64,000 nt of DNA, taken from contig OX597821.1 in the NCBI GenBank assembly GCA_951406725.2, positions 85,932,001-85,996,000 on the forward strand, in the 5' to 3' direction. Position 1 is the first letter of the stretch, and every line of letters starts with the position of its first letter. This stretch comes from Octopus vulgaris (taxonomy: Eukaryota). The notes beneath the pieces are model-generated. The model was not told the DNA's origin. It ran no database searches and saw only the letters and a list, made by a program, of their open reading frames with translations. The position numbers and the translations under genes are program-made. This document shows positions 8,206 through 48,190 of this stretch, one piece after another.

Positions 8206-8513
8206 TCCTCTTATAGATGGTTTGAATCCAAGACCTATCACATCCTCCCTTCTTTTAGCTATTTCTCTTGTACAAGACAGTTTTTAGAAGGTGTAGCTGA
8301 TTTTACTAACCCAAGTAGCATCATTGATACTTATTTTTTATATTCTTAAATCTATATTAATGATAAAAGTTATTACAGAGATGTACTCGCATAGCAAGTG
8401 ATTTGATCTGAGATCGTGTGCTGAAACGAAGACAATTGCAGCGTGGAAGGTGTTTGTAAGCCATTTAAGAAACACACAAAAGCCGTTCGATTCACTTCAA
8501 CATTTAAGTTTAA

Positions 8514-8560
8514 TTTGTCAAAATATTTTCGTTGCTTTAAGACCGCGACCTGTTCACTGA
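8514..8560 (-). ncRNA. Inverted copy of the G3-C8 hammerhead (helix I 5' strand truncated)
   Basis: Reverse complement reads TCA-GTGAACA-G-GTCGC(ggtcttaaa)GCAAC-GAAA-ATAT-TT-TGACAAA. Confidence 0.55.
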
Positions 8561-8575
8561 GATGCAGCACGGATT

Positions 8576-8625
8576 TTTGTCAGTGAACAGGTCACGGATT
8601 TTAGCGACGAAAATATTTTGACAAA
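8576..8625 (+). ncRNA. Minimal type I hammerhead motif, G3-C8 core variant
   Basis: TTTGTCA-GTGAACA-G-GTCAC(ggatttta)GCGAC-GAAA-ATAT-TT-TGACAAA: 7 bp helix I, helix II, palindromic helix III AATATT. Confidence 0.65.
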
Positions 8626-8727
8626 TTAAACTTAAATGTTGAAGTGAATCGAACAGCTTTTGTGTGTTTCTTAAATGGCTTACAAACACCTTCCACGCTG
8701 CAATGATAAAAGTGTCCAGCTGATAAT

Positions 8728-8914
8728 GTTATTGTAAAGGTCAAGTTAACCATATTTAAGAGCATCTATGATCAAAGGTATTCTAGCAATGACCATCCCA
8801 AATACCCTTTAGATTGGGTATCTAGGACTACACTATCCAGCATATCCTTCCTTTTTTTTTCAAGACAGGAGTGAATTGGCTGCTATTTCTAGCAAGTCAA
8901 GCAGCCATGTAGAG
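8728..8914 (+). repeat. Unclassified dispersed repeat, family D (representative copy)
   Basis: tgatcaaaggtattctagcaatgaccatccc...ggctgctatttctagca. Diverged copies near 13640, 15255, 16855, 40400, 40620, 43695 and 61810. Confidence 0.6.
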
Positions 8915-9355
8915 CAAGGGTTCTTAACAAGGTCCAAATGACCCTTGGGGGTCTATAAAAGATTTATCTGCAATAAATTGGTTATACTTCTTTTTCATAC
9001 AGTTCCCCAAAATATTTAATTATAAAAATACAATGAGATTTTTTAAAACCCTTTTGTTACCATATTTCTGTTGGGATGCTCAGTGTTTCTTTCAATTAAT
9101 TTTAAATATAACAAAGAAATTAGTAAAATAACTTAGTTATCATCAAGCTAGTGTTAGGAACATAAATTGTGACGAAGGTTTGGTGGAAGATTTTAATTCA
9201 AAACTTTTGAAAACAAGACATTTGTACCACAGAGCCAGAGGCGGTTTCAGCCAGGTTGGTATCAAAAGGGTTAAACATCAAATGGCTATGGGGGTCCACC
9301 TGACTAAAATAGGAAGCAAATGGGTCCAGAGGCAAAAAATGGTTGAGCGCTACTG
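8915..9355. mobile_element. hAT-type MITE
   Basis: Imperfect TIRs CAAGGGTTCTTAAC / GTTGAGCGCTACTG with a perfect 8 bp TSD ATGTAGAG (8907-8914 and 9356-9363). Confidence 0.8.
9049..9270 (-). mobile_element. piggyBac-type (TTAA) MITE nested in the hAT MITE
   Basis: CCCTTTTGTTACC / GGTATCAAAAGGG|TTAA; same family as 9528, 23737, 28964 and 30693. Confidence 0.85.
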
Positions 9356-9527
9356 ATGTAGAGGCTTAGCAGTCTACTCAATACATTCAGGCAGTTTTCT
9401 TTTCAACTCATCAACTTATGTTCATGTTAGTGCTTAACTCCTTTCAGTTCTATCAAGCAATTGTTCCAGTCATAACAGCCCTACATTTTTTTATATCAGG
9501 GACTACATTGTTCAATGTATCCTTTAA

Positions 9528-10010
9528 CCCTTTTGATACCAACCTGGCTGAAACCGACTCTAGCTCTGAGTACAAATGTCTTGTTTTCAAAAGTTTTGAA
9601 TTAAAATCTTCCACCAAACCTTAGCCACAATTTATGTTCCTAACACTAGCTGAATGATAAATAAGTTATTTTACTAAATTCATCATCATCATCGTTTAAC
9701 GTCTGTTCTCCATGCTAGCATGGGTTGGACGGTTCAACCAGGGATCTGGGAAGCCAGGAGGCTGCACCAGGCTCTGGTCTCATCTGGCAATGTTTCTACA
9801 GCTGGATGCCCTTCCTAACGCCAACCACTCCATGAGTGTAGTGGGTGCTTTTTACATGCCACCTGCACAGGTGCCAGGCGAGGCTGGCATCGGCCACGGT
9901 CGGATTGATGCATTTTACGTGCCACCTGCACGGAAGTCAGTTCTTTGTTATATTTAAAATTAATTGAAAGAAACACAGAGCATCTCAAAATATATATGGT
10001 AACAAAAGGG
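9528..10010 (+). mobile_element. piggyBac-type MITE interrupted by an RTE-tail repeat (9681-9940, minus)
   Basis: TTAA|CCCTTTTGATACC ... GGTAACAAAAGGG|TTAA; MITE sequence resumes after the insert. Confidence 0.85.
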
Positions 10011-11351
10011 TTAATGTGATGATTTAGCTGGAATTTCTAGCAGGCCTAGCAACTACATTGAAGGTTCCTCAACGGTGATGGTAGACATGTTTTACACATC
10101 AATAACTTATAGAATTTTAATCAAGTGAAGAAAGTATATGTGTGTAGTAGTGAGAGGAGCATGGAAATGACGAGAGATGCAGAGGAGTTGATGAGCAGAG
10201 ACAAGGTGTGTGTGTCTGTGTACGTCTTTAGACACTCGCATTCTAACAAGCCGATACACGAAGCTATTGAAAATCCTACCCAGAAATATAAGACTGGTCA
10301 TATGTTATCATCACTTAACATGTTTTTCATGCTAACATGAGATGCAAAGTTTGACAGGATCAGGTGAGCCACAGGGCAGCATTGAGCTCCAGTGTCAGCT
10401 TTGGGAGGCTTTCTTCATTAACTGATGATGATGATATGTGTGTGTGCGTGTGTGTGTTTGCAAGGAAAAAGATGACAGTGAAGTGACCTCAAAATTGCAC
10501 TTAGTCACCTTTGTCAGACTTTCTGACGAAAGTGACTAAGCCAAAAGAGTCACTGCCAACCATTTCCTTGTAATAATATTAAAAGACTTAAAAGGTATTG
10601 GTCAATCCTTCAATTAATATTTGACTATTATACACACATACCTACACTGTGTGTATACATACATACAAACATACATATATTATGTATGTCATCCATAAAA
10701 ATATATGTATATATAAAATATAATCCATCACATATAAATGAATAAAACTGATCATTTATACCAAAGCATACAATTTGAACCTTTAATCCAATGATACTAA
10801 CCTTCATGGACACATACACACATCATATAATTTCTGCTGACAGCTACTCTAATTACCTAAATCACAATTTTGTCATTATTGATTTGGCATCACTAAATGG
10901 TGTGAACTAATATGATAGAGTAGTAGGGAGGAAGAGGACTGGTAGGAGAGAGGTATTCAGAAGGAGAGAGAGAGAGAGAGGTGAGAGAAAAGGTGGAGGA
11001 GACATGTGTGATGGTGTTGGTGGTGGTGGAGAGGCAGAATGGAAAAGATGATGAGAGGCTAGGAAAAGTCGTTGAGCAAAGAGGTGAGAGAGAGAGAGAG
11101 ACAGTGAACAGAAAAGTAAAAGTAGTGTATGTAGGAGTGTGCATGTTTTATGCATGTGAGTATGCAAGAAATGTGTGTAAGAAGAATTAAAGGAGTCATG
11201 GGCCAACTGCCACCTGCAGGATTTTCTAAAGGAATGCCTAATAAAAAAATTTACCTTGGACTTTTTTTTTATTAGCACTGCTCTGATGATGAGCCGTGTT
11301 GCATATGGCCCTCTTCCTGAAAAAGGCTGGCCATGTCTGGTTTAAAATATG

Positions 11352-11574
11352 ACATGCTTTAAAAAATAAACATGTAATGAGCAGGATTATGGGTTAACTG
11401 ATGATTTTGGTAAGCTAACTGTTGAGTACAGATGGGGGAAGGAACAGTACCTTTTGTATTATAGTAAAATGTGGTGCAGTAGACTAATTGCTGCCTGCAT
11501 TGGGGAAAGGACAGTATTCAATGGATTTCAGCAAAGAGTATGATAACTTGTGGAGAAAGACAATATTCACAAAA
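11352..11574. repeat. About 220 bp direct duplication, copy 2
   Basis: Matches 7618-7837. Confidence 0.9.
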
Positions 11575-12268
11575 TCACAGAAAATAGCATTAAAAACTCA
11601 AGTAACCATGAGGGACATATAAAACCAGAAATGTAAGGTACTAAGCTAGAATATCATAAAGTCAGCTAATCAAACTGTCAGGTTATGTTGGTAATTAACA
11701 CTGACAGCAAGGAATCAGAATCACAGAAAATAAGGAGAAAAGGGTCTGTGTAGAATACATGTCCCTCTTGTAGATGGAATGAACAGGGTAAATAAAAGAG
11801 AAACAAGTCACTACCGCATATGAAAATTAGGTTGCTGGAAGCCCAACTTTTGAGTACCTAAATTAGTAAGTAATAGTTTTAGAAAGATGTTGCTATGGTG
11901 ATAGAGCTATATCTGAGTATCGATTGACTAATGAACAGAAAAGTGATTATATGAAGGGAAATTTGAGTAAAGAGGTTAGCAGAAAAGAAAAAAAAATTAG
12001 ATTGTATCTAATGTCAAGATGAATATGTAGTAATCCTCACCACCACCACCACCACTATCATAAACACCTTCACCATCATCACTATCACCAGCATTATCTC
12101 CAACATTATAATCCTCTCTTTTAAAATATCTGAATTTCCAAGCAGGCATCGCTTGATTGGAGAGAGGAACTGTTTATGTAGGAATGCAATAAGAATGTAA
12201 AATAATAATAAAAAAAAAGCCCCTGGTTAAACAGTATTTTTGGTTCTAAAGCTATTGTCTATGGTGGT

Positions 12269-12307
<39 letters not shown>

Positions 12308-12358
12308 CAAAAGATTTATATGTTAGAACAGTAAGTCTCAACAGGATTTTGTTGTTAA

Positions 12359-12532
12359 CCCCTTGTAGATGGATTTAGTACTTGACAGTCTTGGCTATTC
12401 AGTAACTTCACAATTTTTCATACAAGGAATTTTACAGTGTATTTAAAAACACAGTGCCACACAGAGCAAGGCATAGCACTGCTCACACACACCGTTCCAA
12501 TGCAGTCAGTACCGTTTCCCATCTGCAAGGGG
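12359..12532. mobile_element. piggyBac-type MITE (second family)
   Basis: TTAA|CCCCTTGTAGATGG ... CCATCTGCAAGGGG|TTAA. Confidence 0.85.
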
Positions 12533-12604
12533 TTAAACTTAATGCGCAAATATTTCTACAATACACAACAAATTTGAACATTTTTTTTTTAATACCAAAC
12601 CTAA

Positions 12605-12996
12605 TCTATATATATAAAAGTGAGGTTGTGTGCTGTCTGTCTCCTACGATTTAGATTCCTAACTACTCCCACATTTTGCGGTGCAGTTTAACCAAAACCG
12701 GGTATCTTATAGTCGTGATTCATATCTAGCCCTTCTGGGTATTAGCGTGCGTCTACGATGAGTCTACGATTTAAAAAAAAAATTACCATAATTTTTTCCC
12801 ATTTTTAATGCATTTTTGGCATATATAAGGGAAGTAACTCTCTAAAAATTTATTAAATCTCAGAACGTAAAAAGCTACAGTAACACCCCCCTTTGTGGTT
12901 AGCCATATTGAAATGGCTATTATACTTTACATCTCTAAAAATGCTTATATAGTTATTTCCCTTACAAACCCGAGCAACACCGGGCGATACTGCTAG
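12605..12996 (+). mobile_element. Non-autonomous Helitron
   Basis: A|TC start, subterminal hairpin cccg..cggg and CTAG|T end; second copy at 37526-37906. Confidence 0.85.
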
Positions 12997-13257
12997 TATT
13001 TAATAAAAATATAATAGCAAATTTTTTGACATTGAATGGTTATTAGGCTGCCCCCACCTTCTGCCCACCTCAAGTAAAATAGCAATCAAAAAACTCCACA
13101 GGCAAAACAGTAGTTGAGAATACTGCTTTAGAATAATGATGCTTTAAGATAGGTTTTGTTACAGATCCTCAAATTTATAAAGAAAACAGACATAGGAAGT
13201 TGTGACATTAATGCTTTCTCCAACCTCTATATAGTCAATTCAAATTGTCTGAAACAG

Positions 13258-13640
13258 TACTCCTTTACTCTTTAACTTGTTTCAGTCATTTGACTGTGGT
13301 CATGCTGGAGCACCGCCTTTAGTTGAGCAAATCGACCCCGGGACTTATTCTTTGTAAGCCCAGTACTTATTCTATCGGTCTCTTTTGCCGAACCGCTAAG
13401 TAACGGGGACGTAAACACACCAGCATCGGTTGTCAGACACACAAACATATACACACACACATATATACATATATACGACGGGCTTCTTTAGGTTTCCGTC
13501 TACCAAATCCACTCACAAGGCTTTGGTCAGCCCGAGGCTATAGTAGAAGACACTTGCCCAAGGTGGCACGCAGTGGGACTGAACCTGGAACCATGTGGTT
13601 CATAAGCAAGCTACTTACCACACAGCCACTCCTATGCCTG
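13258..13640 (-). mobile_element. Family A SINE
   Basis: Reverse complement of the 741-1158 consensus. Confidence 0.85.
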
Positions 13641-13824
13641 TAGTTAAATTTTCCTTCAAATCATACCTCACAACACTTAACAAAAAAAAAAAAAGGAGAG
13701 AGGGTGAGAATGATCACAACTGGGACACCTTTGACTTTAAATCTGCTGTCAGAGCTGCCCTAGGCTAAACAACAAAAACATCTTGGAAAACAACTTGAAA
13801 CAACAAAATGTGATTGGGAAGATA

Positions 13825-14119
13825 CATCATCATCATCATCATCATCGTTTAACGTCCATCATCATCATTTAGCGTCCGCTTTCCATGCTAGCATGGGTTG
13901 GACGGGTCAACTGGGGTCTGTGAAGCTGGAAGGCTTCGTCAGGCCCAGTCAGATCTGGCAGTGTTTCTACGGCTGGATGCCCTTCCTAACGCCAACCACT
14001 CCGTGAGTGTAGTGGGTGCTTTTTACGTGCCACCTGCACAGGTGCCAGATGGAGCTGGCAAACGGCCAAGGACGGATGGTGCTTTTTACGTGCCACCGGC
14101 ACGGGGGCCAGGCAAGGCT
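13825..14119 (-). mobile_element. RTE-tail repeat (family B)
   Basis: (CAT)n then cgtttagcgtccgctttccatgctagcatggg; duplicated tail. Confidence 0.85.
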
Positions 14120-14367
14120 ATATTAAAAAGTACACTACTGGTGCTACTACTATTGAAATAATGTTTACAGATAAAATAGAATTATTCAACTGATCGATTT
14201 TAATTTTGTTAGGCTCATGGCCTCAAATATACTAGGAAGAAAGTATAATTCTGTGAGATGGTCATGTCTTTCTTCAAGGTATTTGCAGTTTAAGTGGATG
14301 AGTTTTTAAAATCAAGAATTTAAACTAACTCAGAGACATAACTTGCAGTGGAGAATTTCCCTTTTAA

Positions 14368-14754
14368 TACTCTTTACTTGTTTCAGTCATTTGACTGCGG
14401 CCATGCTGGAGCACTGCCTTTAGTCGAGCAAATCGACCCCGGGACTTATTCTTTGGTAACCCCAGTACTTATTCTATCGGTCTCTTTTGCCGAACCGCTA
14501 AGTTACGGGGACATAAACACACCAGCATCGGTCGTCAAGCAATGCTAGGGCGACACATACAAACACACACACACATATATATATATACACGACAGGCTTC
14601 TTTCAGTTTCCGTCTACCAAATCCACTCACAAGGCATTGGTCGGCCCGGGGCTATAGTAGAAGACACTTGCCCAAGATGCCACGCAGTGGGACTGAACCC
14701 AGAACCATGTGGTTGGTTAGCAAGCTACTTACCACACAGCCACTCCTGCGCCTA
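14368..14754 (-). mobile_element. Family A SINE
   Basis: Full-length match to the family. Confidence 0.85.
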
Positions 14755-15369
14755 TGTTCATTGTTTCTTTAATAACCTTAATTAGTGTCAATATATTGTA
14801 GAAAGGCTTTGGTTAGGGTAAGTCTGACACAGTGTGACAGATGACTTAGATTCAACTCCCAGCCATTCATGATTGTCACACAACACCATTTCCTTTCCCC
14901 CGTCTTATTCATTTTAAAATGTTCATTAAAAGCAATGGTAATTAACTCATTTTACAGGTATATAATCTTACATGTACAGGGAGAGGAGACTGGGGATTTG
15001 AAACATTGATTTCTGTTGTAGGTTAGTAGAGAGTAGGGGAAAGAAACATGGGTAGGTAAGGAAATTTCCTGTGGAAGTTCAAAGCAGTTCATGGGAAGGT
15101 TCAGTGATTATGGAGCTGGTGAATGTAACAGGTGAAGAAGGAGGAGACAAGACAAGTACTCTGCAAAAAAGTGGAGACAGTTTGCATACAATCAATCAAT
15201 CAATCAATCAATCAACATGTTCAGAGACGAAAAGAGTATTGCAATGAAAATAGTTGTATTTAAACACAGGTCAGCCCTGATCCAATGCACCTATGATAAG
15301 AGTTCCATGACCATTCAATCTTATTTTCAGATATGATGCATTGAATACTATATATAGAAAAAAAAACAC

Positions 15370-15602
15370 GATTTTCCGTGACCGTTGCCAGTACCGCCTG
15401 ATCGGCCCTCGTGCCAGTGGCACGTAAAAGCACCCACTACACTCTCAGAGTGGTTGGCGTTAGGAAGGGCATCCAACTGTAGAAACTCTGCCAAATCAAG
15501 ATTGGAGCCTGGTGCAGCCATCTGGTTCACCAGTCCTCAGTCAAATTGTCCAACCCAAGCTAGCATGGAAAGCGGATATTAAACGATGATGATGATGATG
15601 AT
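15370..15602 (+). mobile_element. RTE-tail repeat (family B)
   Basis: gtggcacgtaaaagcaccc... and (GAT)n tail; a further fragment at 15810-15962. Confidence 0.8.
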
Positions 15603-15748
15603 TATATATATATATATATATTATATTAAATTAGAGACAAAACCACTATTATGCAAATCAAACAAAGAAAGACTTAAGCCAATACATAAAATAATTTATA
15701 TAAATTAAATTTAATTAAAATAACCACAATAAATTAAATAAATTAATA

Positions 15749-15798
<50 letters not shown>

Positions 15799-16472: not shown

Positions 16473-16517
<45 letters not shown>

Positions 16518-19159: not shown

Positions 19160-19195
<36 letters not shown>

Positions 19196-19908: not shown

Positions 19909-19941
<33 letters not shown>

Positions 19942-21235: not shown

Positions 21236-21454
21236 ACACACATACACAACACATGTATATCCTTAAAAATGTTTTAGCCGAAGGCCGCGGCCTTCAGGCT
21301 AAAACATTTGTACATGTATGTACATACACACACACATATGTACATATATACACATACAAATACACACAAACACATAAGTGTATATATATATACGACATGA
21401 TAGATCGTTAGTTACTACACACATTTTTTTCTCTCCTTGTTTCTTTTCTGTGTA

Positions 21455-21492
21455 TCTTTCTGTCGAAGAGCGTAGGCTCGAAACGTAAAAGA
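21455..21492 (+). ncRNA. Minimal type I hammerhead motif (A6U, extra A) inside a roughly 200 bp insert between TA tracts (about 21391-21590)
   Basis: TCTTT-CTGTCGA-A-GAGC(gtag)GCTC-GAAA-C-GTA-AAAGA; helix III is the ACGT palindrome. Confidence 0.6.
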
Positions 21493-21586
21493 CTTTTTCT
21501 ATTTCTGTTCCTGAGCGCTATACTAATACATTTATTTGTTTGTACTCCACCTGCTTTCGTCTTTTGTTTATTTTCGTAAACTTTCC

Positions 21587-21637
<51 letters not shown>

Positions 21638-22439: not shown

Positions 22440-23300
22440 TGAGGGGGTACCCAAAAGTAACCAGAAACGCTCTCTGTGGGACAAACCTATGGGAGTTCAG
22501 GCTTCTGCTGCTAGAACTCACTTGATGCAACCCTCAGGTACCAGTCTACTAACTGGCACTGTCAGGTGAAGTCACACTGCCACGTGGTGCATCTTTCTTT
22601 TGCAGTGCTTCTCCCTTGTTTGTTGATTTTTACAATGGCTGACACGAAGGAACAGCATGCTTCCATGAAATTCTGTTTTCTGCTGGGGAAAACAGCATCC
22701 AAAACAGTTGTCATACTTCAAACAGCTTACAAAGACACAGCCATGAGCAAAAACACAAGTTTACATACAAGTGGTTTTCATGCTTTAGGAATGGTCACTT
22801 ATTGCTCATTCACAATGACCATCAATCTGCCAAATGAATGAAAACATCATGAAAATTCTGGAACTGATTTTGGAGGACTGTCACCAAACAATTGAGAAGC
22901 TTGTTGATATGACTGGTGTGTCCTAGGGTTCCTGCCAATGTATTTTGTGTGAAAACTTGCAAATGTAAAGAGTTGCAGCAAAATTTATGTCTCTCTTGCT
23001 CATGGAAGATCAAAAACAGTCGTGACTGAATGCGTGTCATGAACTGAAAGAACGGCAGGAAGTTGATCCAGACCTTTATTCAATGATCATCACTGGTGAT
23101 GAAAGCTGGTGCTATGGAATTTGTAGATGTGGAAGAGGTGAAGAAAAAAAATGATGGAGGCGTTAAAAGGCATCACTTCACAAGAGTTCCAGCATTGCTT
23201 TAAGAAGTGGAAAACGCACCTGGACTAATGCATTGCTTCAAATGGGGAATACTTTGAAGATGATAAAAGTGTAAACATGTAAAACTAAGTGAATAAAATA
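22440..23300 (+). mobile_element. Internally deleted mariner transposon fossil
   Basis: MADTKEQHASMKFCFLLGKTAS (mariner N-terminal HTH) from 22635, IITGDESWCYG (first catalytic D) near 23090, then a jump to C-terminal CIASNGEYFE; frameshifts and stops. Confidence 0.88.
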
Positions 23301-23736
23301 ATAATAATAATAATAACTGTTTCTAATTTAGGCACAAGGCCTGCAATTTTGAGAGGAGGGGACTAGACAATACTATCAATCCCAATACTTGAGTGATACT
23401 TTATCCTATCAATCCCAAGTTGGCTCAGGGAGGATATGAACTCAGAATGTAGGGAACTGGGACAAATACCGCCCGACATTTTTTCAACTGTCCTAACAAT
23501 TCTGCCAGCTCCACTGTTTCTAATCTCAGTCACAAGGCCAGTCATTTTTAAAAAGAGGAGCTTAATCAATATTACAGACCTTAGAACTTGACTGGTACTT
23601 TATCTTATTGACTCCAGAGAGATGAACAGAAGAGTTAACCACGACAGGATTTGAAATCAGACTGTAAAAGGCTGGAACATATACTGCAAGGCAGGCTGTC
23701 TGATGCTCTAAAAGTTCTGCAAATCCACCACCTTAA

Positions 23737-27540: not shown

Positions 27541-28035
27541 AGTATGGCTATGTGGTTAAGGAGCTTGTTTCCAAACCAAATGGTCCGGGGTTCAGTCCCC
27601 ATGTGCAATACCAAAGGCAAATGTTTTTTGAAGCCTTGAGCTAACTAAAGCCTTGAGTGTGCATGTGGTAAATGGAAGCTCAAAAAGTGATTTGTTTATT
27701 TGTTTGTTTATGCCTCATGCATGCCTGTGTGTATATACACATGTACATTTGCATATATTAGCAATTGCTTGTAAAGTTTATGATGGGTTGTAGCGTTAGG
27801 TTTTTCGGTCAACATCATCATCAACTTGCTTCTTGCTTCTGAAGCCATGGGGAATAAAATATCCATTATTTGAAAACAAGTAGGATTAGCGATAGAAAAT
27901 TGCATCCTACTGAAAAACAATGCCTCAATAATACAATTATCTAACCCATGCTAAAAATGTTAAAATCACACAAGTATATATATATATATATATATATATA
28001 CTTTATATATATATTGACATATCGGTTCCATTCTA

Positions 28036-28087
28036 GCAAAAACTGTCCGATGAACGGCAACGGGAAACTCAGAGTAACAGGTTTTGT
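28036..28087 (+). ncRNA. Minimal type I hammerhead motif (U4C)
   Basis: GCAAAAACTGT-CCGATGA-A-CG(gcaa)CG-G-GAAA-CTCAGAG-TA-ACAGGTTTTGT; helix I about 11 bp with one mismatch, near-palindromic helix III, GUA site. Confidence 0.65.
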
Positions 28088-28183
28088 TGAATTTTCTGCT
28101 GCTTTAAATAAAGCATACTACTCTACCACTGGTATTTGAGTACTCTTTTTTCCACCTTGCTTCACATTTATGTGTTTACTCCG

Positions 28184-28215
<32 letters not shown>

Positions 28216-28299
28216 AATCCAAACGGGAAAACAAAAAAACAACAACAATGGAACAATTACAGTATTATTAATAGGCGCTCAGGAAATGGAAGCAGGGAG

Positions 28300-28334
28300 G
28301 TATGACGTTTCGAGCGGAGCTCTTCGTCGGAAAC
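28300..28334 (-). ncRNA. Minimal type I hammerhead motif (U4C, extra A)
   Basis: Reverse complement reads GTTT-CCGACGA-A-GAGC(tcc)GCTC-GAAA-C-GTC-ATAC; weak helix I. Confidence 0.55.
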
Positions 28335-28421
28335 ATAAAGAAGGAAGAGAGAGGAAAGAAAGATCCCAAAGCGGGCAACAGGGATAGAGAAAAAAACGAC
28401 TGGTGTTTACGAGTTACACAT

Positions 28422-29282: not shown

Positions 29283-29439
29283 GGTGATCAGATGTTCAAG
29301 TTTGGTTTTAAATTACATCTCAGTTATATTATAATTGTACAGATCAAGTTCCATCAAGTACTGTACATGTGCACTTGAGATGTACAAGTGTAAAATAACT
29401 GAGGTGTAATTTAAAGCCAAACATGAACATCTGATCACC
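29283..29439. repeat. Fold-back with arms of 45 bp or more
   Basis: ggtgatcagatgttcaagtttggttttaaattacatctcagttat / ataactgaggtgtaatttaaagccaaacatgaacatctgatcacc. Confidence 0.85.
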
Positions 29440-30911: not shown

Positions 30912-33308
30912 TTAATTTCTGCCAAAACTGACTGTGTTTCAACCTTCCAGGATTAATAAAACAATATACAAGAACTGGGGGTCAATATAATCAATTGCAA
31001 TCACACCCCTTCTCCCATATGTGTGACCATGTACCTATGTAAAAAGCCATTATTACAGATAAGGTATGAAGTTTACAGTTCTTTAGTGTCCATAAGAAAG
31101 AACATAACTCAAATATGCTGGACACACAATGCAAAGATCAACATCTAAAAGCTTTGTCTTTGTAATGTGTCTCTAGTCAACCTGTTTGCTCCACTCATTC
31201 CAGACAAAAATGGGTGAAGGATATTTTCAAGCAACTAAACTAGCAAGTAGGCAAAACAAACAGTCTTTTGTAAATATATTTAATGCAAATATTTACGTTT
31301 GTTGAACTGTCTAGTATATACTGACTTATATAAAAATGGACAGAAAGAAATAACATTTAAATATATAAACGTTGTTTTTTTTACTTTTTTCTGTATCACA
31401 TTTTTTATGAACAATAGTATCTTTAGTCACCAATTTTGTTTAGGTTAATCGTAGATTCACTAGATTTATTATGGTGGAAGTAATATTTCAAGCATCTGCG
31501 CAACTTGAGTGGAATGTATACTACAATTTCATTTTATTCTAAAGCACTGATTTATCATCTTTCAAGCTAATGTTTATATCTTTCAGTGAAAGACATACAC
31601 ATACATACACAGAGGGCTCCCACAGTTTCTGATAACCAAATTTCACTCACAAGGCATTAACTCAAGGCTTAAGGTAGAAGACATAGGGAATGAACTCAGA
31701 ACCACATGATGTGAAACAAATTTCTTAACCACATAGCTATCCCTGTGTCCATCTTGCTTAATCCTTTTTTATTTGAACCAGTGTGAGTCATTATCTTAAG
31801 GATGAGCACGAGTTTGCTAAAAAGACACGGTCACTGCACAAAGTATTGCTTTAAAAAGTATTTAAAGAAGTAATAACCATAAATTTCTGTCATTTTTGTG
31901 TGAGAACATGTTCCTAACTTTGTAGTGAGAACATGTTCAGTTGAATTTAGAAGTTCTGTATAATAATGACATGAAATGACAAATCAATTCCAAAGACTTG
32001 AAGTGAATACAATAAGCCAGCTGCAGAACATTGCTTGTCCAGTCTTGCTCTCAACTATCTCAATAATGGTATGATGACAATAGAGCTAAACTTCGAGATG
32101 CCTCCAGTATTAAAATAGCAGAATATTTGAAATTCAGGAAACTAAGTTCACATTGTAGCAAGATAGACTTGCAATTCCACTTTCAGAGAACAGATTCTCA
32201 AGTAGCAAAGTACCACCACCACCACCACAATAGAAGTGGAGAAAAAAAATGAGGTGAACAAAGTTTTTTTTGTTTTTACCGTTTTACTCAGGAGGAAAGG
32301 TAGGGTCCATGATTCTTTCTTTACAGGGCTTCCAAGATTAGAGGGAAGGAAAGAGAAAGGAATTCTTGAACCAAAGACTTGGCCTGAATGTTTGCAACTG
32401 AAAGGGGTCCACTAAAGCAATGAAGTGCTTGGTATTGATGTTAAAACTAGGTAACAGGTTAACGAAGGTTCTATTACTAATCAACAAAGACTGACCTCAC
32501 ATCAAGGTACAATGACTAGTTCTAACAGCAGTAAGGTAATACATCCAGTACTGCATACCTGATTAACTCAGGTAAGTACAGTAAAAGGAAAGCTATAACA
32601 AAAAAAAACCTCTAAAATGGCATCAATGAACAGAAATTATTAAATAATAATAAAAAAAAAACAATTCAGCACAATAGCGAACATATCTTGAAATTACAAG
32701 TCAAAGGGTTTCGATGTGGTCTTTTGAAAAATAGTAGCCAAATACTTCTCAAAAATCACACCCGGCCATCTTATAAAGAAACTATACATTGGATAGTGTA
32801 AATAATAAAAGTTGTGCTCTGAAAATGTTATTTCCTTGTTTCATACATTTGTCCTCTTTCAGAGGGGAAGAAAATATACAGTTGTTTCGGTTCAAAATTA
32901 CTACTGATGAAGTGATTTAAGTTCAAGAGCAATGTGGAGCAGTTTGTGTGGGGAAATGAAAAAAAAAAATAATAATCAGTGAGTGTGCAGGAGGGCTTGG
33001 TCGAAATAGGTGATGAGGGTGGTGACAAAATGAAGACTAACTAGGTCAAGTAAGGTGAGGAAAGTGGAAATGCAATGCAATTCTGAAAGGACACTAATAA
33101 TAATACAGATTCAATAATGTAGTCCAGGTTTGATTATAGATAAATTGTACTTAGAAAAATACAAACAAGATAATTATGGCTAAAATGTCTTTGATTACAG
33201 CTCAGCTAAACTAAGTCCAACTCGGGGTTAAATAACAAACAACAAGTCTTAAAATTAAGATCACTAATGTTACTGAAAGCAAATAAAATTTTATATCAAA
33301 TATATACA

Positions 33309-36179: not shown

Positions 36180-36819
36180 AAATAAATCACACATGTCATC
36201 TTCCTGTTCCTATTATTTAGCAGAAGAGTTTCATTTATTTTCAGGGTAGAGCAACAAAACACCACCACCACCCCCATCTGGCACCTGGAGTATCTTTAGC
36301 AAAGTCTACTCTGGCTCAAGCATTTGAGCCAGGTCTCCAGCTTGAGGCTTCCTTTGTTCCACTAATCTTGCAAAGACTGTGAAAAGTTATGGGCACTGTT
36401 TTTCCTCTTGACTAAAAGATTCAAAAGAAACATGTCCTCACAGATAATGGTGACCTGTGGAGTGAGGGGAATGAAACAACAATGTAGAATATACTTGAAC
36501 TATATTTTAACCTTCACACTATGCTTTAAATATTGTGTTGATTAAAACGGATTAAAGGAGAAAAAGATTCTTTTCATAAATGCAATACTGAAAACTGAAC
36601 TTCAAACTGGATCTGAACTGTCACCCTGTGATTTACATTAAACAATAATTGCTTTTATCCAGAAAATGAAATGAAATGTGAACTATTCTATTAAACATTC
36701 TATTGAACTATTCTATTGGACTATGTCATATGAATGATAGAAAACAGTATAGAAAAATACCTGATTATATTTGAGCCAGCATCCAGATTTTGTTTAATAA
36801 CAAACATACCTTTTTATTA

Positions 36820-37156
36820 GAGTTGTTGTATACTGTCAACTTAATGTGACAGTCCCATGAAGGGAATCACACTACTGCTATTTAGCCCTAGGAGGCAGCA
36901 ATGCTTCCTGTCGGCCTTGACACATTTCCTGTGTCCTTATGTTTACAAGGGGGAGATAAACACCTCCACCCAGCTAAGCCTGCATCCAGAGACTAGTTTC
37001 TGAGTATTTGCTCGTCATCAGTCTGGAGTAGCATGGCCTGCTAGTTGGAGATGCCTATCTAACTCTTGTAAACATATAAGAATTCTAGGGCTAAATAGCA
37101 GTAGTGTGATACCCTTCATGGGACTGTCACATTAAGTTGACAGTATACAACTACTC
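36820..37156. mobile_element. 337 bp element with 72 bp terminal inverted repeats and a central hammerhead
   Basis: Arms 36820-36891 and 37085-37156 differ at 2 positions; the interior is also self-complementary. Confidence 0.85.
36985..37027 (-). ncRNA. Type I hammerhead ribozyme motif with canonical core
   Basis: Reverse complement reads TCCAGA-CTGATGA-C-GAG(caaata)CTC-A-GAAA-CTAG-TC-TCTGGA; palindromic helix III ACTAGT, GUC site, extendable helix I. Confidence 0.8.
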
Positions 37157-37525
37157 CATATACCACTCTGAGATATTTAGAAATGTATTATTTATATCTT
37201 TTTATTATTTTTCATCTTTTTACTTGTTTTAGTGGACAGCAGCCATGCTGGAGCATCACCTCAAAGGGTTTAGACCAACAAGTCGCCCCCAATGCATTAT
37301 TATTTTTAAGTGTGATACTTTTTTTATTTGTCGTTTTTGCTAAATACCAAACTGCTATGTTGTAGGGATGTAAACAAACCAACACCAGTTGTAAGTGGTG
37401 GTGGGGGACAAGCACGAAGACTAAGGTAGCAACTTTGAAGGGAGGGTTAGTTGATGCCACTGACTCAAGTATATTGCCTGATACTTTGAGTAGGGGGAAG
37501 GGTAAATGTATAATAATATAAACAA

Positions 37526-42029: not shown

Positions 42030-42515
42030 TTTATCTTTTATTTGTTTTAGTCACTGGACTACGGCCATGTTGGGGCATCCCTAGAAGGGTTTTGATCAAA
42101 CAGATTGACCCCAGTACTTATAGTCTCTTTTGCCAAACTGCTACGTTACAGGGACATAAACCAACACTGGTTGTCAAGTGGTGGTGGATACACACACACA
42201 CACATATATATGGCAGGCTTCTTTTAGTTTCTGTCTACTAAATCCACTCGCAATGCTTTACTCAGCCTGGAGCTACAGTAGAAGGCATTGTGCCAATTAG
42301 TGGGATTGAACTTAGAACCATGTAGTAGGGAAGCAAACTTTTTACCACACAGCCACAACTCACACAGTAAACCTCTACCAAAAAATTCACTCACAAGGCA
42401 TTGGTTGGGTAGGGGCTGTAGTAAAAGACACTTGGCCATGATACTGTACAGTGGGACTGAATCCAAAATCATGTGGTCGCAAAGCAAGTTTCTTAACCAC
42501 ACAGCCATGCACCAT
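42030..42515 (-). mobile_element. Diverged family A SINE plus a tandem head fragment
   Basis: Recognisable family motifs. Confidence 0.65.
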
Positions 42516-44629
42516 TCTTAATATTTCACAAAGAAACACTCAATCTTTGAAGAAGGAAGAAATTGTGGAATGATTATAAAGTAGGTGAAACTTTGGAAAT
42601 CTGATTGAAAGCATCCACCAGGCTAGCAGCATATTGCCAAAACCACTTATCCACATCCCTGGACTAAGAAACGCTGCAGCTTCTAACAGCATGTTGACCA
42701 TTACCTGATGACATAACAACAAGCCCATTTCAGACCATAACTGGCTGGCTTAGAGGGTATGTGTGAGAAAGAGAGAGGGGGGAGGAGTATATTGATGAAT
42801 TCTAGACTTTTTCCACCACACACATGCTACATCTATAACACAAAGATCAAAGGACAACTAATAATGTTAGGACATTGGTAAAAGACATAATTGATCCCTT
42901 TGCTGTGGATGAGGTGGCTGTGAGACCTGCTGAAGCCAATACTATGGGAATAAAGTGGATGGAGAGAGAAAAAAATGCAAAAGTGTTGGGATGAAAATGT
43001 GTGCAACACTCAGTGGGCTTCAGAGAGACAAATTGTAGCATTATTTGAGTCATGGTAGTTGAACCTTAGTGACACAATGCTTCATGAATCCAAGTTCAAA
43101 CAGTAGCATTTTTTCTTTTCAAATGACTTCATGAGAAGGAAGTGGCTACATTCATAACTTTCGCATGCCTACTGAGACTGAGGCAATTTATATTCAACTT
43201 CAAAAGTTAATGACTATAGATAAAAAAAAAAAACAAAGATTAGAAGGGAGATGACATTCTGAAAAGGCAGACTGAGTGAAGTGGTTAATGTAAGGTCCTG
43301 AACTATGAAACACAGTAGGGGTAACCAGATGAGTGTCTTGTATGGAGGTGGTGTGTGTTGTTCCCATTGTGTCACAACGGTGCTTCTTCATTGTTAAGAA
43401 GTCTCTGACAACAAACTGTGTTGGTCGTACTTCAATCTTGGACATTGTCCTTTCAACTGACACTAGAAAAGTTGGTTTGAAGGTCTGCAAAACTTGCACT
43501 ATGACAACCAGTTGAGATGATATTTGCAAGCTATTGACAATACAACTTGTTGCAGTGCTTTGCACATTCCCTTATTTCCTCTTTTGAACAAAATCACTCT
43601 TTATCTGACACTTGCAATTTTACTAAGGTATCTAACAGATACACACATAGAGTGTTCTTTTCAAGTTGGATTTTAAATGTCATGTCTGACGGTTATTGCT
43701 GTTTAGTCTCAGATCAGATCTGATTGAACAAGCTTGCATAACCAAAGGCATTCCAGCTTTAAAAGTTCCATCTTTTCCTAGGTGCAATAAACCTAGGACC
43801 ACATTAACTCACGAGTTTATTTGTAAAGTGGTAGATGATTTCAAAGAGAGTTGACTGTTATTCCTAGCAGAACAATCAACTGCATTGGCATATCACGAAG
43901 CTGATTTCTAATTTAGTGCCATTCAAATATTGACCTTCCAATAATGTTTTAATATTTTATAATGGAATTGGTTGGCTGTTAGCAGTCTTTGTCTTGTCAA
44001 CTTCAATTAGTAAACAATGGAAGTGGTGCAAGAAATTTTGCTGTCTTGTAATCTTGTAAGATTGATTATTAAATAATTTAATATGAATAGTCTCTTTTGA
44101 ACAGCTAATGGAATTCCAAGGCAGCATGTTTGCTGAGATTGACTTTTCCTGTTATTAATCTCATTGACATATGTCACGTCTTTTCACTGATGTGGAGCAA
44201 TGAATGACAATCAAATGCCTTACATTTTAGATACAGCTTTATAGAGCAAATCTTTTTGCAGCCAATTTGGTTGATTTCCTTGGTTCAGATTCATGTAGAC
44301 CAGAAAATGTGCCAAGTGTTTTTTTGTTTTGCTGTGCTCATATAGATGCAACCATGGTTGTGTGGTTAAGAGGTTTGCTTCACAACCACATGGTTTTGAC
44401 TTCAATTCTACTGTGCAGCACCTTGGGCAAGTGTCTTCTACTATAACCCTGATCTGGCAATTGCCTAGTGAGTGAATTTGATAGAGAAACCTGTTTTGGG
44501 TATAAATGTGTGTGTGTGTGTGTGTGTGCGTGCGTGTGCATATTGGGATATTTATATTTTTATATAGGGGAATTTGTTTTGGGGGTAGGAAAGCCATTTA
44601 CTGTATTTTCTCATGGAGAAAATATCTCA

Positions 44630-45875
44630 GTCACTAGTCATTGCCTCTGTGAGGCCCAAAGTTCAAAGATCATGCTTCATCATCTTGTCCCATGTCTTCC
44701 TGTGTCTACCTCTACCACGGGCTCCCTCCACAGTTAGAGATCGGCACTTCTTTACAGAACTGTCCTTGTCCATATGCATCACATGGCCATACCAGCGCAG
44801 TTGCCTCTCATGAACACCACATCTGATGCCTCTTATTCCCATCTTTTCTCTCAAGATGCTTACACTGTCAAGCATACATACTGACATTACACATTCAGTG
44901 GAGCCTATTGGCTTCAATTCTTTCAAGCCTATGCATGTCCTCAGCTGTCACAGCCCAGGTTTCGTTGCCGTCTGATGTAGCTCTTCATACACATGCACCA
45001 TACAAGCTGCCTTTCACTCTGAGAGAGAGAGGCCCTTTGTTGCCAGCAGAGGAAGGAGCTCTCTGAATATTGCCCAGCCTCATCTTATTCTCACAGCTAT
45101 GCACTCAGCACATCCACATCCACTACTCAGTTGGTCACCTAGATAAATGAAACTATCTACTACTTCTAGTTTACTCCAATGGCAGTTGGAGTCTATTTTC
45201 TGTACATTTTTGGTGTTTATTGTTCTTGAGCATCTTCCACACACAAAAGCTATTTTGCCCGTTAACCTTCCTGTGATATTGCTGCACCTTTTATGTGTCC
45301 AAAGCTTACAGTGGGAATATCCTATGGAGTTTCTACCTATGCCTTTTCAACAGATCGAGCAGGGTCATCTACTTGAAGGGTTTTGTGATTTGTTTGCCTT
45401 CTTACTAAGACTTTAGTTTTTGCAACATTTGATTCTAGACCTTGCTTCCAGACCTGGAAATTCTTCTCTAGTTCTGGTAGTGATTCAGCTATAAGAACAA
45501 GGTCATTAGCATAGAGGAGCTCCCAGGGGTAGCCTGTCTTAAATTCCTCTGATATTGCTAGGAGTACTATGATGAACAAGAGGGGCTGAGGATCAATCCT
45601 TGGTGAACCCCTACTTGTACCCTGAATTCTTTGCTATACTCATTGCCAACTCTCACCTTACTGGTAGCATCTTTGTACATGGCTTGTACAGCTCTCACCA
45701 ACCACTCATCTATCCCTAGTTTCTACCTTGACCACCAGATAAGGGATTGGGGTCTCTGTCAAAGGCTTTCTCCAAGTCAACAAAAACCAAATGCAGAGGT
45801 TTATCTTTGGCTATATATTTCTCCTGCAGCTGCCTTACCAGAAATATAGCATCAGTGGTGCTTCTCTCTGGCAGA
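44630..45875 (-). mobile_element. Degenerate RTE LINE (RT core to C-terminus)
   Basis: STTDAIFLVRQLQEK, FVDLEKAFDR, GVHQG, LLYANDLVL (YADD motif) and LRWYGHVMHM; frameshifted; homologous to 5390-6319. Confidence 0.9.
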
Positions 45876-46698
45876 GGACCCATCAAACCAAATGAAATCA
45901 TAGTCATGGCTGATGCTGGTGTCACATTACTGGCACCTGTACTAGTCGCACATAAAAAGCACCTTTCCAGTGTTTGCCCTCACTGTGGCAATGACTGAGA
46001 CCTTTGGCATTATGTTGTGCTTGAGAAGACCCATCAAGCTGAGCAAAACTGCCGTCATGGCAGATACCGGTGTCAAGCAAATGGCACCCATTACACTCTC
46101 AGAGTGGTTGACATTAGGAAGAGCATCCAGCTGTAGAAAAACTATGCCAAATCAGACTGGGATGAGGTGCAGCCTTCCAGCTTGCCAATCCTGATCAAAC
46201 CATCCAACACATGCCAGCAGGGACATCGGACTTAAATGATAATATATATATGTATGTATATATGTATGTATATATGTATGTACGTAAATATGTATGTATA
46301 TATGTATGTATATAAATATGTATGTATATAAATATGTATGTATATATATAAATATATATAAATATGTATGTATATATGTATGTACGTAAAAAGCACTATC
46401 CGACTCGTGGCCGATGCCAGCGCCGCCTCGACTGGCTTCCGTACCGGTGGCACATAAAATACACCAATCCGACCGTGGCCGTTGCCAGCCTCGCCTGGCA
46501 CCTGTGCAGGTGGCACGTAAAAAGCACCCACTACACTCACGGAGTGGTTGGCGTTAGGAAGGGCATCCAGCTGTAGAAACATTGCCAGATAAGACTGGAG
46601 CCTGGTGCAGCCTCCTGGCTTCCCAGATCCCTGGTCGAACCGTCCAACCCATGCTAGCATGGAGAACGGACGTTAAACGATGATGATGATGATGATGA
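45876..46698 (+). mobile_element. Two RTE-tail repeats separated by a (TATG)/(TA) microsatellite
   Basis: Family B motifs at 45876-46240 and 46383-46698. Confidence 0.75.
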
Positions 46699-46808
46699 TA
46701 TAGTTGATGCTGGTGTCATGTTAATGTACATACAGTTGTATTTACGCTGTGAAGCCGTTGTGTTCGTGGGGTATGTATAATTGTTCGTCTTTATGCGCAT
46801 TGGGTTGT

Positions 46809-46870
46809 ATTACACTGGTGATGGAAAGAGAGGGATTTCCCTTTAATCCTGAAATCAATTGATATGTAAT
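46809..46870 (+). ncRNA. Type I hammerhead motif (A6G) with a long helix II
   Basis: ATTACA-CTGGTGA-T-GGA..AGGGA(tt)TCCCT..TCC-T-GAAA-TCAATTGA-TA-TGTAAT; helix III palindrome ATCAATTGAT. Confidence 0.65.
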
Positions 46871-47012
46871 TAAACCTTTACATAAATCTTTATCGTTTAT
46901 TTGCCTGAATTCAGCGTGTATTTATTGTGATAATTTTAAGGTAGCTTAGAGACATTCGTCTTCTTATAGCATGTGGCAAACTAGTGTACTTACTCGCTTA
47001 CCCTGAATATTA

Positions 47013-47049
<37 letters not shown>

Positions 47050-47052
<3 letters not shown>

Positions 47053-47840
47053 TAATGCTTCGATATATGAGTAAATTTGTTCCCAGAGACCGCTCATAAA
47101 TTGAAAAATCATAAAGCAGAGCAATAATTTCCCAAAGTAGCAATGTTATAAATTGTAACTCATTCCCAGAAAAATGTTTTACCTATAAAATTTATAATAT
47201 TCATAAATAAATGGCAATAAAACAGTAGAATGTAAAGAATATTTTCTGTAAACTAAAAAAAAATATGTCAAAATCATTTATAATATAAAATATTATTATT
47301 ATAATTGTTTTCTGAATCACTTCATTCGCACTAGACTCATGCACACCATCACTTGTAGATGTGATCACTGATTCACAAGCATTCATAGACAGACTTGTAA
47401 ATGTCTTTTTAAAAAGCAAGTCTAGAGTTGTTTACTTAGCAGAATCTTTTTTCGCTCTCTATAAATTTCTCGGCAAAATATAGAAGCATTTGTTATGGCA
47501 GTAGAGACTTTCGCACTTCATTCAAAATTTGGATCTTGTGCTTGAAAAATTTCCAAGGCTTTATCCAAATGCTTCCACAAATCCTTTCAGCGTAAATATA
47601 TTAACTGGCATTTTATCAACAGCGTCATTTTCCTCTTCTATTGTTGCTTGGTCCTGCATTGCAATAAGGTCTTCATGGGTGAGTTCAACACTACATGACC
47701 GAAGCGTCAGAACCAGTGTTGCCACATGTTGCGACATCACCATACACACAAAAAGGCTATTTAACCTTTGTATATTTATTACAAAATAAAACTCATAAAC
47801 CCAGGGTTTCATAAAGTGGGTCCTCATAAAGGTATTACTG
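47050..47840 (-). mobile_element. Tigger/pogo-like DNA transposon deletion derivative
   Basis: Termini CAGTAATGCTT / AGGTATTACTG|TA; ELTHEDLIAMQ...EEE...FTLKGFVEAF resembles the Tigger transposase C-terminus. Confidence 0.7.
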
Positions 47841-47885
47841 TATGTGTGTGTATATATATATATTTATGGGGAAATTTGTTTTGGG

Positions 47886-48190
47886 ATAGGAATGCCATTC
47901 ACTGTATTTTTTCATGAAGAAAATTTCTTGCTGTAGAGAAATAGGTGTAAATACACAGTGCAACCAGTGATTGAGTGATGACAGGAATATCATAAGAGGG
48001 ACTTGCCTCTCAAGTCAGTTCATAGAGTCTACCTTTCTAATCTCTGTTGCTGAAGAAGAGATAACCACTCAGAAATGCATGCAATCCAAAAGTCTGGTTA
48101 GGGTGCATTGCAAACTGATTTGGTGTTTCTACCCTTTACTGTCTTTGAGAAATTTTCTCCATAACAAAATATAGTGAATGGTTTTCTTAT
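47886..48190. mobile_element. 305 bp element with 44 bp inverted termini and a central degenerate hammerhead (48046-48085, plus)
   Basis: Arms 36/44 identical. Motif GTTG-CTGAAGA-A-GAG(ataacca)CTC-A-GAAA-TGCA-TG-CAAT. The left arm is also present at about 44564-44625. Confidence 0.6.

Follow-up and report, generated by a model that had tools for sequence, protein, structure and literature searches.

Eight candidate hammerhead ribozyme motifs lie in the 64,000-nucleotide stretch of Octopus vulgaris DNA analysed here (the window), all of them at the positions and on the strands given by the first-pass annotation. They are minimal type I hammerhead folds carried by seven abundant repeat families (Table 1), and as judged from sequence they are candidate ribozymes. 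The type I order that had been read from the window is borne out, running from helix I through the core, helix II, GAAA, a palindromic helix III and H17 back to helix I. Dimer-type palindromes form helix III in all seven families, as had been proposed. A helix I of at least 4 bp, helix II, GAAA and the core boxes are likewise present in the family alignments of all seven. The number of carriers had been put at about six; seven dispersed repeat families are counted instead, because 8514 and 8576 belong to one insertion and 21455 and 28300 represent related families. The motifs had been placed within the introns of a single gene. No host gene was confirmed, as none of the 150 non-repeat frames scanned (of 320) reached the Pfam cut-off and no relative was found for the best exon-like frames in the window.

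Table 1. Candidate hammerhead motifs, the repeat copies that carry them and a further endonuclease fragment in the window
Feature	Position	Strand	Description
f8 insertion	8371..8704		head-to-head inverted pair of ~205-nt PLE-type element
motif 8514	8514..8560	-	G3-C8 core (GUGAACA), helix III AATATT, U17
motif 8576	8576..8625	+	G3-C8 core, 7-bp helix I, helix III AATATT, U17
f21	21393..21588	+	5'-truncated 3' end of Neptune-type PLE, in (TA)n
motif 21455	21455..21492	+	A6U core (CUGUCGA), 4-bp helix II, helix III ACGT, A17
f28a	28013..28183	+	5'-truncated 3' end of Hydra-clade PLE, in (TA)n
motif 28036	28038..28086	+	U4C core (CCGAUGA), short helix II, GNRA loop, helix III ACTCAGAGT, A17
f28b	28209..28419	-	5'-truncated 3' end of Neptune-type PLE, in (TA)n
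motif 28300	28300..28334	-	U4C core (CCGACGA), helix III ACGT, C17, weak helix I, one mismatch
f36	36820..37193	-	part of 351-nt ORF-less head-to-tail unit with inverted 5' copy
motif 36985	36985..37027	-	intact CUGAUGA, C.A mismatch at 10.1/11.1, helix III ACTAGT, C17
f46	46726..46996	+	part of ~500-nt ORF-less head-to-tail unit, 3' end at (TA)n
motif 46809	46809..46870	+	A6G, U.U at helix II base, helix III ATCAATTGAT, A17
f48	47886..48190	+	old copy of ~348-nt ORF-less head-to-tail unit with 43-nt inverted 5' copy
motif 48046	48044..48092	+	decayed; family form CUGAAGA, 4-bp helix II, helix III ATGCATGCAT, C17
PLE endonuclease fragment, eighth family	58317..58679	-	C-terminal end, probably Hydra-like

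A CUGANGA-like box had been described for the motifs. It is intact in the window copies of 36985 and 48046, while the other six copies differ from it. At the family level, strict CUGANGA is kept in f36, f46 and f48 and is absent from f8, f21, f28a and f28b, where the core variants are family traits (G3-C8 in f8, A6U in f21, U4C in f28a and f28b). The copy at 46809 has A6G, and the commonest word in the f46 family alignment is CUGAUGA. The window copy at 48046 is damaged by an inserted A and other changes; its helix III had been read as ATGCAT, where the family has ATGCATGCAT followed by C17. At 8514 the inversion junction leaves 3 bp of helix I. The predicted cut site of motif 36985 is between 36991 and 36990.

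Three of the families are joined to protein-coding sequence. The upstream extent of f21, f28a and f28b is staggered among copies, and in each of them the hammerhead-bearing end is joined to an ORF with reverse transcriptase (RT) plus, at the C terminus, a GIY-YIG domain. The carriers of 21455, 28036 and 28300 are regarded as 5'-truncated ends because longer copies run upstream into these Penelope RT/GIY-YIG ORFs, which agrees with the link to Penelope-like elements (PLE) that had been suggested. In f28b, 13 of 20 loci have at least 1 kb of upstream sequence in common, the end of the ORF lies ~2.8 kb upstream in long copies, and an ORF with RT, Zn-linker and GIY-YIG was reached in 3 of the 7 extended loci; its GIY-YIG match (PF01541, E=0.007) is below the cut-off of that model. 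A same-strand upstream ORF of the f28b type was found in 7 of 20 f21 loci, these loci having been picked by upstream sequence, and an upstream ORF in 3 of 5 extended f28a loci. From the Zn-finger-like linker before GIY-YIG, together with sequence motifs, we take the f21 and f28b parents to be probable Neptune elements. The predicted translation of the f28a parent ORF (L365/L366), inserted in (TA)n, carries RWK, DKT and CxCx5C. These motifs define the Hydra clade (Craig et al. 2021, PMC8557442), and by this published definition the predicted parent belongs to it. A6U is fixed in 22 of 25 f21 loci and U4C in 20 of 20 f28b loci. The A6U and U4C families are among the most abundant, with 15 and 6 descriptor matches in 600 kb.

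The f8 insertion in the window has a tail of ~60 nt on the left arm and none on the right, with a 12-nt target duplication at 8359–8370 and 8702–8713. Among 30 f8 loci, found with a one-arm query, 19 have the head-to-head arrangement and 11 are without the inverted arm. Of the 19, 16 have the tail on one arm only and none has it on both, and the copies differ in their junctions. A one-armed tail is a pattern described for PLE (PMC8557442; Frangieh et al. 2024, PMC11167929). The 5' boundary of f8 is fixed, about 20–25 nt ahead of helix I. No common sequence was found further upstream in the 30 loci or in 4 unselected loci, none of the tailed arms ran on into shared sequence, and the search for a parent ORF gave no frame longer than 164 codons in 150 scored of 15,036 candidates. 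The family is probably a short ORF-less element with a Penelope tail, which fits the non-autonomous class. Exact copies with the family's G3-C8 core number 4,713, compared with 156 for G3-G8 and 11 for C3-C8. A canonical C3-G8 sister family was considered; one exact copy was found, and with a looser pattern two, one of them at the same place. Such a sister is without support because ~0.4 copies would be expected from single changes.

The remaining families, f36, f46 and f48, consist of units a few hundred nucleotides long that lack an ORF, are joined head to tail and have one type I hammerhead each. The period of f36 is 351 in 7 of 30 loci and 344–357 in 9 of 30, a full dimer with 350-nt spacing was found, and the longest ATG-frame is 48 codons. 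The window copy has a 14-nt direct repeat at 36806–36819 and 37194–37207. Circular folds of two natural f36 monomers gave z = -8.0 and -11.3, and those of f48 monomers, which are old copies, were no better than shuffles (0.3 and -1.7). The f48 period is 347–348 in 3 of 25 loci. In f46 the 5' part is joined to the family's own 3' end in 9 of 35 distinct loci, and no parent ORF was found among the loci examined. No mobilising enzyme was assignable to any of the three. Covariation within families, which had been named as a check, was found in f36, where helix III alternates between ACTAGT and ACATGT; the first 100 of 439 exact motifs comprise 83 with ACTAGT, 15 with ACATGT and 2 with one-sided changes. 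The ACATGT form occurs 62 times genome-wide, and the swap may be a single event. RNA reads on one f36 monomer numbered 268–386 of 11.5–12.9 million in runs of a probably related organism, with the strands about equal and the reads mostly <95% alike. No pile-up of read ends was seen on the monomer in standard RNA-seq, a type of library that can miss small circles, and among the holders listed none is on record as RNA.

In these families the 3' ends are fixed and lie at AT-rich or (TA)n sites, the 5' ends vary and inverted 5' copies occur; a tail of PLE type was measured in f8 only. It is very likely that three families are the ends of ORF-bearing PLE and that the other four are small elements without an ORF, which the same enzymes likely mobilise. 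Published PLE biochemistry suggests that the RT/GIY-YIG protein would nick AT-rich DNA and that reverse transcription would start inside the RNA, ~100–250 nt downstream of the hammerhead. A hammerhead would be present in nearly every insertion because reverse transcription would usually stop early. In a tandem transcript, two motifs could join by pairing of their palindromic helix III and cleave the RNA into units, probably helped by protein, and in the ORF-less families the cut units may circularise and generate more-than-unit copies. The single, partly decayed copies in the window would be inert passengers.

Alternatively, the folds in the PLE end repeats of the variant families could lack catalysis or be expendable, and could persist because they bind protein or pair with RNA, or as mere hitchhikers. 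This is possible, if rather unlikely. A change at the A6 or U4 position lowers hammerhead activity (PMC3088659), and A6U and U4C are fixed in very abundant families. The f36 reads are without cleavage ends, and in the PAc Poseidon element of Anolis the hammerhead mutants insert normally in vitro, without reduction (PMC11167929). Against this, the G3-C8 swap of f8 is a paired one, as the copy counts of the alternatives indicate. The 3-8 pair matters for catalysis, and C3G/G8C partly rescues cleavage in PAc (PMC11167929). The covariation of f36 helix III and the ability of U4C to support viroid infectivity (PMC3088659) also speak against it. The fixation of A6U and U4C in large families and the 156 G3-G8 copies of f8 suggest that full catalysis may not be needed.

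A tentative proposal is that the largest families operate on non-standard cores, f8 being a natural G3-C8 hammerhead and f21 an active A6U ribozyme within a population of ~10^5 PLE-type hammerheads. In that case f8 would be a parentless, PLE-dependent, SINE-like element of ~205 nt with a fixed 5' end, and the families would be a natural mutant series for the role of the hammerhead in PLE transposition. Should f8 and f21 prove to cleave, either as dimers or together with PLE protein, about half of the hammerheads of such genomes would escape standard descriptors. Among the young families both the catalytic positions (canonical, G3-C8, A6U, U4C) and the lifestyle (with or without an ORF) vary, and the role of PLE hammerheads is therefore testable by setting cleavage rate against family success.

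It had been proposed that the carriers are all non-autonomous ribozyme elements of 200–340 bp. Every window copy is short and non-coding, and the non-autonomous description holds for the ORF-less units of f36, f46 and f48, at ~350–500 nt, and probably for f8, with its fixed 5' boundary and unshared upstream sequence in both the 30 and the 4 unselected loci. It is ruled out for f21, f28a and f28b by the PLE ORFs into which their staggered 5' ends extend, and as an account of all seven carriers it is improbable. Even less probable is that the f8, f36 and f48 inserts, which have inverted arms of 102, 72 and 43 nt, are MITEs with hammerhead-like centres by chance. The terminal inverted repeats are not constant, and single-arm copies rule this reading out, the arm being missing in most f36 and f48 copies and in 11 of 30 f8 loci; the f8 junctions are variable, its tail is one-armed, and the target duplications are 12–14 nt.

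A first, stricter descriptor found none of the eight motifs with a perfect core and three with up to two core changes. Allowing two core changes gave 6 window matches in all, against 1.8±1.4 in shuffles, and the three extra loose matches are unique or nearly unique sequence. An Rfam scan gave no hammerhead model among 85 matches at E≤1. A relaxed descriptor, which tolerates a mismatch at 10.1/11.1 and accepts four core variants that are paired or already known, found four of the eight motifs in the window against 0.03±0.18 in 30 shuffles. In 599,900 unselected genomic bases it gave 27 matches against 0.35±0.48 in 20 shuffles. Because three of the core variants were picked after the window had been seen, the comparison in the genomic sample is the more impartial of the two. 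Despite the loose window matches and the Rfam result, the excess over shuffled sequence in this sample, a comparison that the first-pass annotation had called for, rules out chance matches of a loose descriptor in AT-rich DNA, a reading that is hardly credible when each family alignment keeps the fold and reversed-pattern controls gave 0.

Since 27 matches in 600 kb compare with 0.35 in shuffles, ~10^5 motifs are estimated genome-wide, or ~126,000 when scaled from the sample (83,000–183,000 by Poisson, and wider given clustering). This is consistent with the very large and varied ribozyme population that had been predicted. The window is not enriched in motifs and the eight are no cluster, as 4.7–5.3 per 64 kb are expected at the sample rate (P = 0.10–0.17). 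None of the nine other hammerhead motifs of the genome sample matched the window.

Small PLE hammerhead variants that cleave as dimers, of the same short-stem-III dimeric class, have reportedly been described by Lunse et al. in RNA Biol. The minimal hammerheads of PLE (Cervera and de la Pena 2014, PMC4209133) are described as being, like those here, of type I with a palindromic loopless helix III and an extra nucleotide between 9 and 10.1. They also occur as many unrelated families per genome, mostly as single motifs of truncated PLE, with some close pairs on opposite strands. The published load is ~2,000–9,000 per genome, against ~10^5 estimated here with a different descriptor, and the published core swap is U3-A8, whereas whole families here have G3-C8, A6U or U4C. 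Neptune and Hydra PLE (PMC8557442) are alike in their C-terminal GIY-YIG, (TA)n targets, 5' truncation, inverted 5' copy and tail at one end, although the tail is described there as 30–40 nt and is ~60 nt in f8. PAc (PMC11167929) also has AT-rich targets, and a pair of internal RT start sites there accounts for a tail such as f8 has. In PAc the G3-C8 core was made by engineering, whereas f8 has it naturally. The metazoan non-LTR retrozymes (Cervera and de la Pena 2020, PMC7229834; Li, Clavereau and Pollet 2026, bioRxiv 10.64898/2026.07.22.740005), the second study of which included minimal motifs, share ORF-less ~350-nt head-to-tail units with one type I hammerhead, a self-paired circular fold (f36 here), long target duplications and a PLE-dependent origin. 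They are described as long arrays with canonical hammerheads and units near 350 nt, whereas the present families are mostly dispersed partial dimers with inverted copies and minimal hammerheads, known from DNA copies and reaching ~500 nt in f46.

This kind of system is already published (Cervera and de la Pena 2014, 2020; Li et al. 2026 preprint). The finding therefore mainly extends PLE hammerheads to a genome for which no description was found, and what is possibly new is that whole families are fixed for G3-C8, A6U or U4C and that the motif density is high. Neither a natural G3-C8 hammerhead, as distinct from a laboratory rescue mutant, nor a cephalopod hammerhead was found in the literature, where the supplements of PMC4209133, PMC8557442 and the 2026 preprint may list cases of either.

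The endonuclease fragment at 58317 had been put forward as a fossil of the enzyme mobilising the eight motifs. Pfam gave no useful match to it. It is assigned to PLE because it resembles the f28a parent (36–38%) at its endonuclease end and because other copies of its family have a hammerhead of their own ~130 nt past the stop, which is lost at 58317. As a separate family with a separate hammerhead, it is ruled out as the parent of the eight. Helix III in 30 loci of this eighth family is ACCTAAGGT in 5, ACCCAGGGT in 4, another sequence in 3 and unparsed in 18.

All eight minimal hammerheads of the first-pass annotation were found in the window (contig C8, 85,932,001–85,996,000) at the same coordinates and strands, and each of their carriers is a dispersed repeat of this genome (2.8 Gb, 227 contigs). 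About 45% of the window consists of matches to other fetched loci. The motifs fall into seven families, named by window position, with the hammerhead fold visible in the alignment of each. Comparison of the loci demonstrates the structure, family links and insertion signatures of these carriers. The system works like the pLTR hammerheads of Penelope-like elements (PLE), and for three of the families it is that system. The alignments are biased to copies resembling those of the window, because the best 40 candidates were scored per family and 20–30 loci retained. The f46 and f48 families are older and were poorly parsed by locus. The window copy of f46 carries A6G; that of f48 is damaged and the register first read there was off, the family form in the alignment being ATGCATGCAT, followed by C17 and a 6 bp helix I.

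Hammerhead families and other features of the window
Feature	Window position (strand)	First-look candidates	Core word	Loci with core word
f8	8514 (-), 8576 (+)	2,011	GUGAACA	22/25 (3 unparsed)
f21	21455 (+)	1,306	CUGUCGA	22/25
f28a	28036 (+)	1,095	CCGAYGA	18/20
f28b	28300 (-)	1,458	CCGACGA	20/20
f36	36985 (-)	2,296	CUGAYGA	27/30
f46	46809 (+)	100	CUGAUGA (usual, from alignment)	
f48	48046 (+)	389	CUGAAGA (usual, from alignment)	
f8 5' boundary	8560-8570			
f8 tail end	8372-8385			
PLE remnant, endonuclease end	58317-58679			
LINE-type RT fragment	5390-6385 (-)			
223-nt stretch, two copies	7618-7837, 11352-11574			
Inverted-repeat elements	9047-10012, 29288-29434			
Mariner-type transposase HTH remnant	22515-22838 (+)			
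Protein-like frames, non-repeat DNA	55647-55877, 43203-43571, 42850-43065, 32151-32411, 23366-23599 (all -)			

Judged by sequence, the f21, f28a and f28b carriers are the ends of ORF-bearing PLEs. The loci of f28b have at least 1 kb of upstream sequence in common in 13 of 20 cases, and a frame with reverse transcriptase (RT), Zn-linker and GIY-YIG, ending about 2.8 kb upstream, is reached in three of seven extended loci; its PF01541 match (E=0.007) is under the Pfam cut-off. Among 20 f21 loci, picked for their upstream sequence, seven have a related same-strand ORF upstream. The upstream ORF found in three of five extended f28a loci has RWK, DKT and CxCx5C, the marks of Hydra PLEs (PMC8557442). 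All three families have (TA)n at the end and staggered 5' ends. The carriers had been taken for short non-autonomous elements; the upstream ORFs contradict this for these families, while it holds for the ORF-less units of f36, f46 and f48. The PLE remnant at 58317, which has 13,978 candidates in the genome, had been taken for a fossil of the mobilising enzyme; none of 30 loci link it to the seven families. Other members of its family carry a separate hammerhead some 130 nt past the stop, which the window copy has lost.

The period of f36, f46 and f48 is too short for an ORF and these families therefore fit non-LTR retrozymes in their sequence-level marks (PMC7229834; Li, Clavereau and Pollet 2026 preprint). 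Seven of 30 f36 loci show the 3' end again 351 nt upstream, nine of the 30 show it at 344–357 nt, and two exact motifs on contig C2 are spaced 350 nt apart. Two natural f36 monomers have circular fold z-scores of -8.0 and -11.3 and a longest ATG-frame of at most 48 codons. A period of 347–348 nt is seen in 3 of 25 f48 loci, where the circular fold of the old monomers is no better than shuffles. Of 35 distinct f46 loci, nine have a 3' end that continues into the element's own 5' part; one complete 500-nt repeat was seen. Exact f36 motifs number 439; helix III in the first 100 is ACTAGT (83), ACATGT (15) or one-sided (2), with 62 ACATGT genome-wide. This swap, also present in RNA reads, preserves the palindrome needed for dimer pairing and may be one event. 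A separate array on contig C1 near 20.00 Mb (L255:2200-4763) repeats a 359-nt unit 5.6 times at 98% identity and includes an inverted run; every copy holds a minimal hammerhead whose canonical core is perfect, and the circular fold z is -4.7. As a candidate active retrozyme it is more promising than any of the copies in the window.

The two f8 motifs are a single insertion with a 12-nt target duplication. This head-to-head arrangement is present in 19 of 30 loci found with a one-arm query; in 16 of these 19 a single arm bears a tail of about 60 nt, and in none do both, a one-armed tail being the PLE pattern (PMC8557442, PMC11167929). The 5' boundary lies about 20–25 nt before helix I, with no common sequence beyond it in the 30 loci or in four unselected loci. 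No parent ORF was found among the 150 scored of 15,036 candidates, where the longest frame is 164 codons. Transcripts of the window copy from either strand are likely to form a long hairpin and, since the motifs are on opposite strands of inverted arms, they would be unable to pair as a dimer with each other. Exact counts of the core pair are G3-C8 4,713, G3-G8 156, C3-C8 11 and C3-G8 1. Identical motifs with the G3-G8 mispair cluster at 1.6–10.6 Mb of contig C16, probably spread by DNA duplication. The 5' boundary is complementary to the tail end over 6–7 nt, and a 31-codon open frame traverses the tail.

None of the 85 Rfam matches in the window at E≤1 is a hammerhead. With a perfect core required, a first descriptor recovered nothing; with up to two core changes it gave six matches (three among the eight) against 1.8±1.4 in 25 shuffles. 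The second descriptor, which tolerated a mismatch at the helix II base and accepted the cores CUGANGA, U4C, A6U, G3-C8 and U3-A8, recovered four of the eight against 0.03 in 30 shuffles. Three of these variants were picked with the window already known, so unselected genomic DNA gives a fairer comparison. Sixty such stretches of 10 kb yielded 27 matches against 0.35±0.48 in 20 shuffles, upholding the motifs in the shuffled-sequence comparison proposed earlier. The core is canonical in 12 of the 27, seven of them from a single array. The U3-A8 swap occurs in three (L281, L288, L297), so such families are also in this genome. Head-to-head pairs joined about 10–90 nt upstream of the hammerhead are frequent in families unrelated to one another (L271, L292, L295, L306, L312, L256), as though copying were prone to halt or turn back at that point.

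Extrapolation from the 27 matches gives about 126,000 motifs genome-wide (83,000–183,000), or 98,000 with the array counted once, bearing out the very large population that had been predicted; canonical cores alone give 28,000–56,000. Homology in the 600-kb sample gave 34 matches from four families (f21 15, f28a 8, f28b 6, f8 5) and none for f36, f46 and f48. The union of descriptor and homology is one per 12–14 kb, making eight motifs in 64 kb unremarkable (P 0.10–0.17). Published loads are about 2,000–9,000 minimal motifs per genome (PMC4209133) and 126,247 canonical motifs in axolotl (PMC7229834), a rough comparison as descriptors differ. Natural U3-A8, A6C and U4C variants are on record (PMC3088659). 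In the portions of the literature consulted, G3-C8 was found only as a laboratory mutant (PMC11167929) and A6U not at all; among the results listed by literature searches there was no description of cephalopod hammerheads.

None of the listed sequence holders is on record as RNA. Three raw RNA runs from a probably related organism contained 268–386 reads of 11.5–12.9 million matching an f36 monomer, about equal by strand and mostly <95% alike, with no end pile-up seen. Hammerhead mutants of PAc, a Poseidon-type PLE of Anolis, insert normally in vitro, and its hammerhead cleavage requires protein (PMC11167929). Dimers cleaved in one of nine tested (Li, Clavereau and Pollet 2026 preprint) and single minimal motifs did not cleave (PMC4209133). 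On these grounds the copies in the window are probably inert. Following PMC11167929 and PMC4209133, AT-rich DNA would be nicked, and RT would start internally, downstream of the hammerhead, and stop early, optionally adding an inverted copy. Tandem RNA would be cut by hammerhead dimers, and ORF-less units might form circles.

The motifs had been placed in the introns of one gene; a Pfam scan covering 150 of 320 non-repeat frames and searches for relatives of the best exon-like ones confirmed no host gene around them. The minus-strand frames could be exons of one gene, and no relatives were found for those searched. No hammerhead was detected in the further inverted-repeat elements. The Mariner-type remnant is weak (PF17906 E=0.0085), and the two 223-nt copies have 97% identity and lie 3.7 kb apart. 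The LINE-type fragment, of 331 codons with a PHD-like Cys/His insert, has near-identical frames elsewhere in the genome.
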